Source: Escherichia phage 212
DNA: 64,000 bases
Direction: 5' to 3' (one strand)
Sequence record: PQ765507
Within the stretch, counting starts at the first letter, position 1; each line of letters starts with the position of its first letter. This document shows, in pieces, positions 37,022 to 38,419 of this stretch. A program made the position numbers and the translations under genes. Under the pieces are notes generated by a model, which had not been told where the DNA came from, did not search any database, and worked only from the letters and a program-made list of their open reading frames with translations.

Positions 37022-37361
37022 TCTTGCATCACATGTTTATCAATTGGCTGAATATGATATTGGTGCCAATTTATTATTAGGGATTGTCACCGCCATGCTT
37101 GGCGGCCTGGTTGGTCTGGTAATGACCACGGTTATGGCTGCAATCGAGGGAGTGATGCCTATTGAGATGGGCTTCTTTATGATAATCGCTCCGGCTGTTG
37201 TGTCTTATTTTATCCCTGTTGTGTATGATATCTGTCACACAAATGCCGTGAATGCTCCTAGTCGGAAGAGATATGCTTCAGCAATGGCTGAGTATAATAA
37301 GTTCCTAGACAAAACAAAACGCAATGAACTTGAAACCTTTATTAAGGAATGTAAATCATGA
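37008..37361 (+). CDS. hypothetical membrane protein
   Basis: 117 aa from ATG 37008 (AAGGAGG RBS); hydrophobic core segments. Confidence 0.45.
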   Translation: MERPSLASHVYQLAEYDIGANLLLGIVTAMLGGLVGLVMTTVMAAIEGVMPIEMGFFMIIAPAVVSYFIPVVYDICHTNAVNAPSRKRYASAMAEYNKFLDKTKRNELETFIKECKS

Positions 37362-37648
37362 ATAAAATTGAAATTGCTATCCCCAAGTATTATGATGAGA
37401 AATCTGCAGAAAAAGCTATCTATTCTCTTCTAAATAAGACCTCTGAAATTGAAAAACACTGTGAAGAAATCGCAGATGAATATGGTATCCAATTTGGTAC
37501 CGGTGATTATGGTTCGGGCCGTACATATTATCCTGTCGGTTATGAATGCTCCCAGTGGTTTAAAGATGAAATTGAAAACAACGGCGGTGAAGTTGAAAAC
37601 GGTGTCGTTACAGTTGGTGCTTGGGTCTCCTCTTCGGCAATGTGCTAA
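37358..37648 (+). CDS. small protein, tandem paralog 1 (C-terminal W-x-SS-x-x-C family)
   Basis: 96 aa; ends GAWVSSSAMC; followed by conserved TGC-TAA-GGAAAT junction. Confidence 0.55.
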   Translation: MNKIEIAIPKYYDEKSAEKAIYSLLNKTSEIEKHCEEIADEYGIQFGTGDYGSGRTYYPVGYECSQWFKDEIENNGGEVENGVVTVGAWVSSSAMC

Positions 37649-37657
37649 GGAAATGCT

Positions 37658-37939
37658 ATGATGAATGATTACAGTAAAAATAAAGAACTGGCTAACGCAG
37701 TAAATGACATCCATAAAGCTATTCGTCGTGCCGAGGAAATTGCAGACAAATATGAGACTCATTTTAATATATACCCTGCTCGCGGTATGGGCGGTGACTA
37801 TTATTCTCCTGGCGCCCTGAAAGCTGACCTTGCCCATTGGGAAGAACATGGTCATCCTGAATGGGCTATTGTTAATACTCATGACTATACAACTGACCTG
37901 GAAAATGGTGGTTGGGTGTCCTCCTCTTATGAATGCTAA
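37658..37939 (+). CDS. small protein, tandem paralog 2
   Basis: 93 aa; ends GGWVSSSYEC; shared EEIAD(E/K)Y core with paralog 1. Confidence 0.55.
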   Translation: MMNDYSKNKELANAVNDIHKAIRRAEEIADKYETHFNIYPARGMGGDYYSPGALKADLAHWEEHGHPEWAIVNTHDYTTDLENGGWVSSSYEC

Positions 37940-37948
37940 GGAAATAAA

Positions 37949-38176
37949 ATGACTGCTAAAACTGTTAAAGAAATTGAAGACCAAATCCGTGCACTAATCT
38001 GTGAAGGTGAACAACTGGCCGATAAAACTGGTGAATACTTTCATGTGTATGCTGACAGTCTTCAACGATATATTCCTGCGGGTTGTCCAGAATACGAAGA
38101 GTATGACTGGATTCGTGGTGATTACGGTATCCCAGATGGTAAAGGTTTCTGGTTTAACTCCTCTATGTCTTGCTAA
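37949..38176 (+). CDS. small protein, tandem paralog 3
   Basis: 75 aa; ends GFWFNSSMSC. Confidence 0.55.
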   Translation: MTAKTVKEIEDQIRALICEGEQLADKTGEYFHVYADSLQRYIPAGCPEYEEYDWIRGDYGIPDGKGFWFNSSMSC

Positions 38177-38185
38177 GGTGATAAA

Positions 38186-38419
38186 ATGACTACTGCTGTT
38201 GAACATGCTGAATTAGAAAAAGCCGCCCTTGAACTGGCTGCACTGTATAAGAAAGTAAAAGATATGGCTTCTGCTCAAGATTTCGGTGTTGAGCTTGATG
38301 ATTATGACGGCGAAGTCCGTCTTGAAGACTGGTTGAACAGCTCTTGTTATGGTGAAGAAGCTGGTCGTACCTTCGTTGCTCGTGCCGATGGTAAAATCTG
38401 GTACCCAAGCTCATGTTAA
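38186..38419 (+). CDS. small protein, tandem paralog 4
   Basis: 77 aa; contains WLNSSCYGEE and ends IWYPSSC. Confidence 0.55.
   Translation: MTTAVEHAELEKAALELAALYKKVKDMASAQDFGVELDDYDGEVRLEDWLNSSCYGEEAGRTFVARADGKIWYPSSC

Follow-up and report, generated by a model that had tools for sequence, protein, structure and literature searches.

Why does a T4-like phage carry, one behind the other, four small genes whose proteins have diverged bodies and end in nearly the same few residues, and what could this shared ending do? The question is raised by a tandem array in Escherichia phage 212 (sequence record PQ765507), of which we analyzed a stretch of 64,000 nt (64 kb, called the window below). The region shares 98% identity with Shigella phage SP18, and the window comes from a T4-like member of the genus Gaprivervirus, in the SP18/VR7 group. 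We find that the array is linked, in one phage after another, to a downstream gene for a putative nucleotidyltransferase-like enzyme. A preliminary description of this DNA had overlooked this near-obligate linkage to a nucleotidyltransferase-fold gene ~0.8 kb downstream, which is the most informative feature of the locus.

The array and its linked enzyme gene

The array consists of four consecutive open reading frames (ORFs), g1–g4. The canonical type-1 member, g1 (37358-37648, +; 96 aa, isoelectric point (pI) 4.4), ends in GAWVSSSAMC; g2 (37658-37939, +; 93 aa) ends in GGWVSSSYEC and g3 (37949-38176, +; 75 aa) in GFWFNSSMSC; g4 (38186-38419, +; 77 aa) belongs to a divergent subtype and has DWLNSSCYGEE within the protein and DGKIWYPSSC at its end. 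These lengths and endings, together with the internal WLNSSCYGEE of the fourth ORF, are exactly as first described. The tails of g1–g3 read G-x-W-x-[S/A/P/N]-S-S-x-x-C without deviation, Cys being the last residue, while g4 carries the shortened motif W-x-x-S-S-C in two copies, one internal and one terminal. Among all stop-to-stop ORFs of at least 20 aa in the window, only these four end in the tail-type pattern W..S[ST].{0,2}C, so chance does not explain the coincidence of their tails. The ratio of nonsynonymous to synonymous substitution rates (dN/dS) relative to orthologues is 0.09-0.5 for g1–g4, which indicates purifying selection and therefore real genes. All four products are acidic (pI 4.4-5.0, net charge -7 to -9), with no strongly hydrophobic stretch that would point to a signal peptide or a membrane segment. 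The start of g1 overlaps the stop of the e.3-like gene before it (ATGA), and the stop of g4 overlaps the next start (ATGTTAA).

The T4 internal proteins IPI-IPIII, which are encoded in the same part of the genome, have an N-terminal capsid-targeting leader that ends at an (L/I)-x-E prohead protease site. On inspection, the N-termini of g1–g4 contain neither an MKT(Y/F)xEF-type leader nor an (L/I)-x-E site within the first 10-20 residues, which argues against T4-type capsid-targeted internal proteins.

On the same strand, ~0.8 kb beyond the end of g4 at 38419, begins the partner gene (39216-40181, +; 321 aa). Its product matches the Pfam families DUF7277 and DUF7275 and PHROG 2141 with strong E-values; these entries carry no function, and RB69ORF134c is an example of the family. 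DUF7277 is an N-terminal domain of nucleotidyltransferase fold (G6-S7, D25-x-D27, E69), and DUF7275 is helical, with many invariant His, Asp, Glu, and Cys residues. In 30 diverse partner homologues G6, S7, D25, D27, and E69 are invariant. The protein thereby shows the features of the Pol-beta nucleotidyltransferase superfamily: the fold, the signature G-[S/G] ... D-x-[D/E], and, on a strand next to it, the third acidic residue. The top structural matches are MenT1, TglT/MenT3, and MenT4; the structural neighbors also include ANT(2'') and LnuA, which adenylylate hydroxyl groups. The modeled fold and the catalytic-type signature thus suggest that the partner is a putative nucleotidyltransferase-like enzyme. 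We do not class it as a member of the MenT family, because the DUF1814/AbiEii Pfam profile matched none of the 30 homologues at E-values up to 10. The partner had no PADLOC match, and searches of its sequence against PDB chains, both as a single sequence and as a profile, returned nothing. Its C-terminal domain contains invariant H...DHD...H...D residues, which raised the idea of a possible HD-type phosphohydrolase; the homologues gave no match to the Pfam HD family.

How general is this arrangement? In every annotated relative examined, the array is followed by a partner gene of ~300-320 aa. The linkage was measured in both directions. For the forward direction we fetched 38 viral loci with the partner protein, plus one metagenomic contig, and counted ORFs of at least 40 aa: 115 of 5,219 ORFs in these 39 loci end in the motif, and all 115 lie on the same strand as the partner and at most 2.5 kb upstream of it. 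All but one of them (114/115) fell inside the interval that was scanned by script, and the remaining one, in locus L032, directly adjoins the partner start. For the reverse direction, viral contigs were scanned with a back-translated DNA pattern of the tail and the hits were confirmed with a hidden Markov model (HMM), yielding 27 loci, several of them on contigs also present in the forward set and about a dozen new. The partner lies 4-1,110 bp downstream in 19 of the 19 loci that have at least 900 bp of downstream sequence; for the seven loci without a partner, only 59-701 bp of downstream sequence is available.

The same pairing appears in several genomic settings: beside e.3/e.2 in T-even-like phages, beside nrdD/nrdC in Aeromonas phages (where the upstream gene is nrdD), and on a marine contig beside a class II ribonucleotide reductase gene, as well as on a 366-kb contig. 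It is kept in four of five contigs from metagenome-assembled genomes (MAGs). T4 has neither the small genes nor the partner, and its e.3 adjoins e.2. The dependence is asymmetric: the enzyme occurs alone in loci L031, L043, and L176, while the small genes had the enzyme beside them in every case for which sequence was available. We are highly confident that the array and its partner exist as a linked module. The conserved pairing of Cys-tailed proteins with a nucleotidyltransferase-like enzyme suggests a two-part phage system that has not been described before.

In the window, the interval between array and enzyme (38413-39202, +) holds ORFs of 75, 66, and 63 aa (phrog_7065, phrog_14244, and phrog_20278) and a 180-nt spacer. 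These intervening ORFs are lineage-specific and no conserved part of the module: in Aeromonas, Yersinia, and other loci, nothing like them separates the array from the partner. The 66-aa ORF (38824-39024) and the 63-aa ORF (39011-39202), which immediately precede the enzyme gene, share 14 nt; the non-coding 180-nt spacer (38641-38823) precedes the 66-aa ORF and contains several promoter-like matches.

The Cys-tailed family, its age and its copy number

Is the tail a peculiarity of this phage? It had been proposed as the hallmark of the group, and it is conserved far beyond this genome. A tblastn search with g1 found 367 phage records, with hosts that include Escherichia, Aeromonas, Enterobacter, Klebsiella, Serratia, Citrobacter, and others (Straboviridae and relatives). 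An exhaustive profile search gave 224 clusters at 50% identity, with proteins of 65-150 aa that nearly all stop exactly where the profile does. Almost without exception, the tails of these proteins follow G-x-W-x-[S/A/P]-S-S-x-x-C and have Cys last; a few have one additional residue. At positions free of filter bias, S(-3) is present in 162, S(-5) in 119, and G(-9) in 110 of 165 members. The median pI of the family is 4.5, the terminal Cys is the sole Cys in half of the members, and none has a membrane segment. Hundreds of sequenced Straboviridae carry the module, as do marine and other large-phage contigs, and it does not extend beyond phages and phage-like contigs. A search of 185,579 species genomes returned the five MAG contigs and no others.

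The AlphaFold2 (AF2) model of g1 is confident (predicted local distance difference test score, pLDDT, of 87) and consists of a long helix and, after it, a small sheet, whose last strand holds the Trp of the tail; a short turn closes the C-terminus. We take the family members to be small, soluble proteins of the alpha+beta type. Compared with the PDB, this model gave no fold match, and its structural matches in BFVD are the same uncharacterized phage proteins. The profile search with the four proteins, which had been suggested as a check, assigned all of them to PHROG 899 (E-values of 3.7e-23, 2.7e-20, 3.5e-15, and 8.6e-10 for g1 to g4); each aligns with the C-terminal 70-90 positions of the 221-column profile. 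PHROG 899, whose members include RB69ORF139c and Aeromonas phage 31 ORF064c, has no function assigned in its catalogue, and g1–g4 have no match in Pfam, NCBIfam, or PADLOC. The preliminary description did not recognize the family; its homologues are multi-copy and uncharacterized, not single-copy proteins of known function, and the motif extends well outside this genome.

Variants of the tail occur in more distant phages. On the marine contig, one member ends in WTSSSQN (..EWTSSSQN, with no Cys) and another in ..WNDSGCSDGEWESSGC. On this contig (L049, 3942-4992), a Cys also closes the products of the genes that lie between array and enzyme (..EEEAQKC, of the Phage_T4_Y00F family, and ..NHGKWC), and an 85-aa neighbor in locus L044 (8860-9117) ends in ..ADSIGFC; among genes of the module, a terminal Cys may be more widespread. 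Further tail subtypes lie directly 5' of the enzyme gene in L039 (5537-5974), L041 (5198-5752), L122 (11878-12315), and L056 (364-543). These subtypes comprise proteins of ~146 aa ending in ..DWNTSYC or ..DWLTSYC and short ones ending in ..VDWYASSC or ..WDDSSC, and in some distant loci a protein of 130-160 aa ending in ..FYC heads the array. A weak match to T4 tk.1 (E 0.017) was rejected as a family member, as it lacks the motif and ends differently. An analogy between the tail and the thioredoxin-like W-C-x-x-C was dropped because the spacing does not fit.

Are the four genes paralogues, and how old is the array? Pairwise BLASTP comparisons of g1, g2, and g3 gave E-values of 3e-6 to 2e-3 at 26-28% identity, and an HMM built from 175 family members recognized all three (E 3e-23, 7e-26, and 5e-19, respectively). 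The (E)EIAD(E/K)Y core that had been reported for the N-terminal halves holds for g1–g3, where it corresponds to the family consensus ..AEKIADEHG..F; the consensus continues as ..AEKIADEHG.EF....AYGMGG.YYP... The 175-member HMM missed g4, and a shallow hhalign comparison gave only 11%. A deeper profile, built from 26 g4-type sequences of many phages and with the consensus D-W-[LN]-[SN]-S-S-C-[YF]-G-E ... D-G-x-[IVL]-W-x-x-S-S-C, aligned to the family profile with 90% probability and an E-value of 1.5e-6 (hhalign). On this profile evidence g4 is a divergent member of the family, and its subtype is conserved across phage genera.

The locus is thus a tandem array of diverged paralogues, as had been claimed. 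The claim that the duplication was recent is rejected. DNA similarity among the paralogues is limited to the tail and the junction, and their protein identity is low. In addition, the g1, g2, g4, and 65-aa types each have orthologues of 40-70% identity in Mosigvirus, Marfavirus, and Yersinia, Pectobacterium, and Aeromonas phages (40-60% for g1 in other genera), and the gene order of the array differs in some of these genera. Because each type has such orthologues across them, the duplications predate these genera.

Copy number does vary among related phages, from 0 to 5 small genes per partner locus, when compared as had been recommended. SP18 and VR7 have a fifth copy of 65 aa between g2 and g3, which the window lacks. 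A three-way DNA alignment of the window, SP18 g2, and the SP18 fifth copy (locus L001, 7050-7247) locates the change: the window follows SP18 g2 on the 5' side of TGGGTGTCCTCCTCTT (37913-37928, +) and the end of the SP18 fifth copy plus the start of g3 on its 3' side. This crossover stretch holds the codons for W-V-S-S-S and joins the body of g2 to the tail of the 65-aa copy, so that the final codons of g2 come from the lost copy (..SSSYEC where SP18 g2 has ..SSSSEC). Judged from this alignment, the recent event is the loss of one unit, by recombination within the shared W-V-S-S-S codons. A conserved coding motif can thus serve as the recombination substrate for a change in copy number.

Junctions and surroundings of the array

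The repeated nucleotide architecture TGC-TAA-GG(A/T)(A/G)AT-NNN-ATG that had been noted between the genes is present at all three internal junctions: TGC TAA GGAAAT GCT ATG (37643-37660, +), TGC TAA GGAAAT AAA ATG (37934-37951, +), and TGC TAA GGTGAT AAA ATG (38171-38188, +), where the Cys codon and stop are followed by a Shine-Dalgarno sequence, a 3-nt spacer, and the start. How special is this unit? The exact form TAAGG[AT][AG]AT...ATG occurs four times on the plus strand of the window, three of these within the array. A less strict pattern, TAAGG-N5-10-ATG, in which the stop falls within the Shine-Dalgarno sequence, is found at 21 places on that strand. Because this second pattern is so frequent, we regard the junction as a locally uniform form of an arrangement that is common in T-even phages, combined with a conserved Cys codon. 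The junction is uniform only in the Gaprivervirus/Dhakavirus group; in other genera its spacing differs and the protein tail is kept. The idea of a special repeated unit, beyond the common T-even overlap of stop and Shine-Dalgarno sequence, is rejected on the strength of this variable spacing.

A candidate T4-type middle promoter (37274-37298, +; MotA box TGCTTCA, 12 nt, TATAAT) lies inside the 3' end of the e.3-like gene and begins 84 nt 5' of the g1 ATG. It is a perfect match to the consensus, and to the consensus only; the pattern search found seven such sites in the window where 3.2 are expected, so that single sites are not significant. The candidate is also present at -84, with an altered spacer, in the closest genera (SP18, L007, L009-L012, L014, and L017). 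A hairpin scan found no terminator-like site between the four array genes, and one weak hairpin (37157-37172) inside the upstream e.3-like gene.

The array is sited in a variable early region, between the tRNA cluster with e.6/e.4/e.3-like genes on one side and e.2/nudE/e lysozyme on the other. Directly upstream is the gene for an e.3-like membrane protein (37008-37361, +; phrog_2330), which belongs to the context and not to the conserved module. Together with the genes for a 190-aa protein (36115-36687) and an e.4-like protein (36626-37021), it appears to form a second tandem set resembling paralogues, in which the e.4-like and e.3-like products are membrane proteins. Their products share a near-C-terminal F-[IV]-x-E-C-[RK] (..RFIAECRE.., ..EEFIKEVRN.., and ..ETFIKECKS), and many related loci have this motif in their upstream genes too (FIKECR, FVTYCRGNK, FISECRGR, FIKYCRGK). 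As in SP18, a cluster of three tRNA genes (Met-CAT, Asn-GTT, Arg-TCT; 32711-32944) precedes the array, at a distance of 4.4 kb. Two G+C-rich palindromic intergenic hairpins of the form AGGGGGC...GCCCCCT (34607-34626 and 36096-36112) are terminator-like and were scored on the minus strand, though they are nearly symmetric. On the other side of the module, an HNH homing-endonuclease gene (40178-40828; phrog_374) overlaps the stop of the enzyme gene by 4 nt. VR7 has an HNH homologue annotated at the same place and SP18 a different small gene; the HNH gene is probably a mobile insertion.

A candidate carrier tail and its alternatives

What, then, could the shared tail be for? Our tentative proposal, which we consider possible and no more than that, is that the invariant tail is the substrate or carrier site on which the enzyme acts. 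In such a scheme, the Trp would anchor the last strand within the fold of the small protein, and the Ser-Ser hydroxyls and the terminal Cys, with its thiol and free carboxylate, would be presented to the enzyme. The simplest action would be transfer of a nucleotide or a nucleotide-derived group onto a Ser or the Cys of the tail. The diverged bodies of the 1-5 paralogues could then provide one enzyme with several differently shaped carriers or effectors, which would be produced early to middle in infection and might serve host takeover or counter-defense. The full proposal, that of an unrecognized protein-modification system in which a nucleotidyltransferase-fold enzyme charges Ser-Ser...Cys tails and the charged paralogues act on different host targets, is put forward with considerable doubt. 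The asymmetric dependence of the two components fits substrates that need an enzyme, and with the variable copy number it favors substrates over obligate inhibitors.

Known systems offer partial parallels. In GlnD-PII and MntA-HepT, a Pol-beta-type nucleotidyltransferase adds a nucleoside monophosphate to a side-chain hydroxyl of a small partner encoded nearby. The logic would be the same here, the modification being inferred by analogy; the targets in those systems are Tyr residues in internal loops, whereas here the candidate is a C-terminal Ser/Cys tail on an unrelated fold. In Pfam, g1–g4 have no HEPN or PII match, and the fold search with g1 returned no HEPN protein. The best analogy for a carrier with a charging enzyme may be CitX-CitD and MdcG-MdcC, where an enzyme of nucleotidyltransferase class attaches a nucleotide-derived group through a phosphodiester to a Ser of an acidic carrier of ~100 aa. 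We detected no sequence or fold similarity between these carriers and g1–g4; moreover, the CitX/MdcG systems have one carrier per complex together with a metabolic lyase or decarboxylase, whereas the phage module has several paralogous carriers and lacks an enzyme of this kind. If the tail were simply nucleotidylated, this would be a novel variation on protein nucleotidylation; the carrier reading, if true, would mean a new carrier-protein chemistry with no characterized counterpart.

Several points weigh against the modification proposal. Many of the loci come from related T4-like phages, and part of the linkage is therefore inherited synteny. In the window itself, array and enzyme are separated by three unrelated small ORFs and a spacer. 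Both the interaction of the two components and the modification of the tail are inferred, not directly observed. The MenT toxins, which gave the best fold matches, have the 3' ends of tRNAs as their targets and not proteins (PMC7450476, PMC10435456). The marine member ending in WTSSSQN has no Cys to be charged, and the model gives no role to the invariant His/Asp/Cys-rich C-terminal domain of the enzyme.

The MenT matches lead to a different assignment of roles, in which the enzyme would be a MenT/AbiEii-like nucleotidyltransferase acting on RNA (tRNA 3' ends) and the small proteins would be its antitoxin-like regulators, their Ser-rich tails serving as pseudo-substrates or inhibitors. We consider this unlikely, although MenT1, TglT/MenT3, and MenT4 head the structural matches, the small genes lie upstream and on the same strand like many antitoxins, and a tRNA cluster and RNA-repair-type genes are close by in several contexts. 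MenT enzymes are reported to add nucleotides to tRNA 3' ends and to be toxic unless neutralized by a cognate antitoxin (PMC7450476, PMC10435456); in that family the toxin is controlled by small partners encoded upstream, some of which work by phosphorylation of a Ser in the catalytic site (PMC11375011, PMC10435456). The phage enzyme differs by its larger helical C-terminal domain, by its failure to match DUF1814/AbiEii (E up to 10 in 30 homologues) or PADLOC, and by being encoded in lytic T4-like phages, and a lytic phage hardly needs to shield its host from a toxin. MenA/AbiEi shows no similarity to the Cys-tailed partners, which number 0-5 and fall into several ancient paralogue types, unlike the one-to-one pairs of toxin and antitoxin; an enzyme found without any small gene is also incompatible with an obligate inhibitor. 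The enzyme might instead be a mere operon neighbor, and the small proteins independent binders for host takeover or counter-defense (inhibitors or decoys) whose tail is their own functional site, for metal or thiol chemistry or for docking to a target. Many phage anti-defense proteins are indeed small, acidic, and arrayed in this way, and the variable-copy arrays here occupy a hyperplastic early region of T4-like genomes; the lack of a PDB match for the g1 fold fits as well, as does the 0.8 kb, possibly with a promoter, that separates array and enzyme in the window. This explanation also seems improbable to us: independent accessory genes of hyperplastic regions usually reshuffle freely, whereas this linkage has survived relocation to four or more unrelated genomic contexts, the small genes came with the enzyme wherever there was sequence to judge by, and T4 lacks both components.

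The chemistry of the tail invites a third possibility, that of a core like those of ribosomally synthesized and post-translationally modified peptides, with the protein body as leader or scaffold: Ser would be activated, for instance through O-nucleotidylation by the enzyme, and eliminated to dehydroalanine, and the Cys would close a thioether ring of the lanthionine or aminovinyl-cysteine (AviCys) type (S-x-x-C-COOH). The C-terminus of epidermin, ..S-Y-C-C, which forms AviCys, has a Ser...Cys-COOH spacing at its extreme end, and this spacing is shared by the tails studied here, where Ser(-4), Ser(-3), and Cys(0) provide the i/i+3 arrangement, Cys is terminal in nearly all members, and a putative hydroxyl-activating enzyme, assigned by fold, is encoded alongside. 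Nonetheless we regard ring formation as very unlikely. No Pfam family of LanB/C/M/KC/L or LanD type was found among the neighbors in the window or in the distant contexts, and the same Pfam survey gave no dehydratase, cyclase, LanD-type flavoprotein, protease, or exporter; the small proteins, as modeled by AF2, are confidently folded domains and not leader peptides; the W-x-x-S-S-C of the g4 subtype leaves no spacing for a ring; and we know of no precedent for nucleotidylation as the activating step of an elimination. Finally, the restriction of DNA similarity among the paralogues to tail and junction could be taken to mean that the repeat is a nucleotide-level or chance feature of stops and ribosome-binding sites and not part of functional protein genes. 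This view is refuted by dN/dS values of 0.09-0.5, by protein orthologues of 40-70% identity across genera and 224 diverse clusters, by the confident AF2 model, and by a junction whose spacing varies among other genera where the protein tail does not.

How does the modification proposal relate to what is already on record? PHROG 899 and PHROG 2141/DUF7277+DUF7275 are the same families as g1–g4 and the partner, and both are catalogued without function. Literature searches on the DUF, PHROG, and RB69 ORF names returned nothing relevant, with no mention of the C-terminal motif or the gene linkage, and neither did a search on C-terminal cysteine, nucleotidyltransferase, and T4-like phages. No characterized system is known to combine these features, and the mechanism proposed for the module is a hypothesis. 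Few viruses have been studied as closely as the T4-like phages, and still no function has been assigned to this module, which T4 itself lacks. Its linkage provides the first functional context for two Pfam DUFs and two PHROGs, and it could reveal a new protein-modification or carrier system used in infection.

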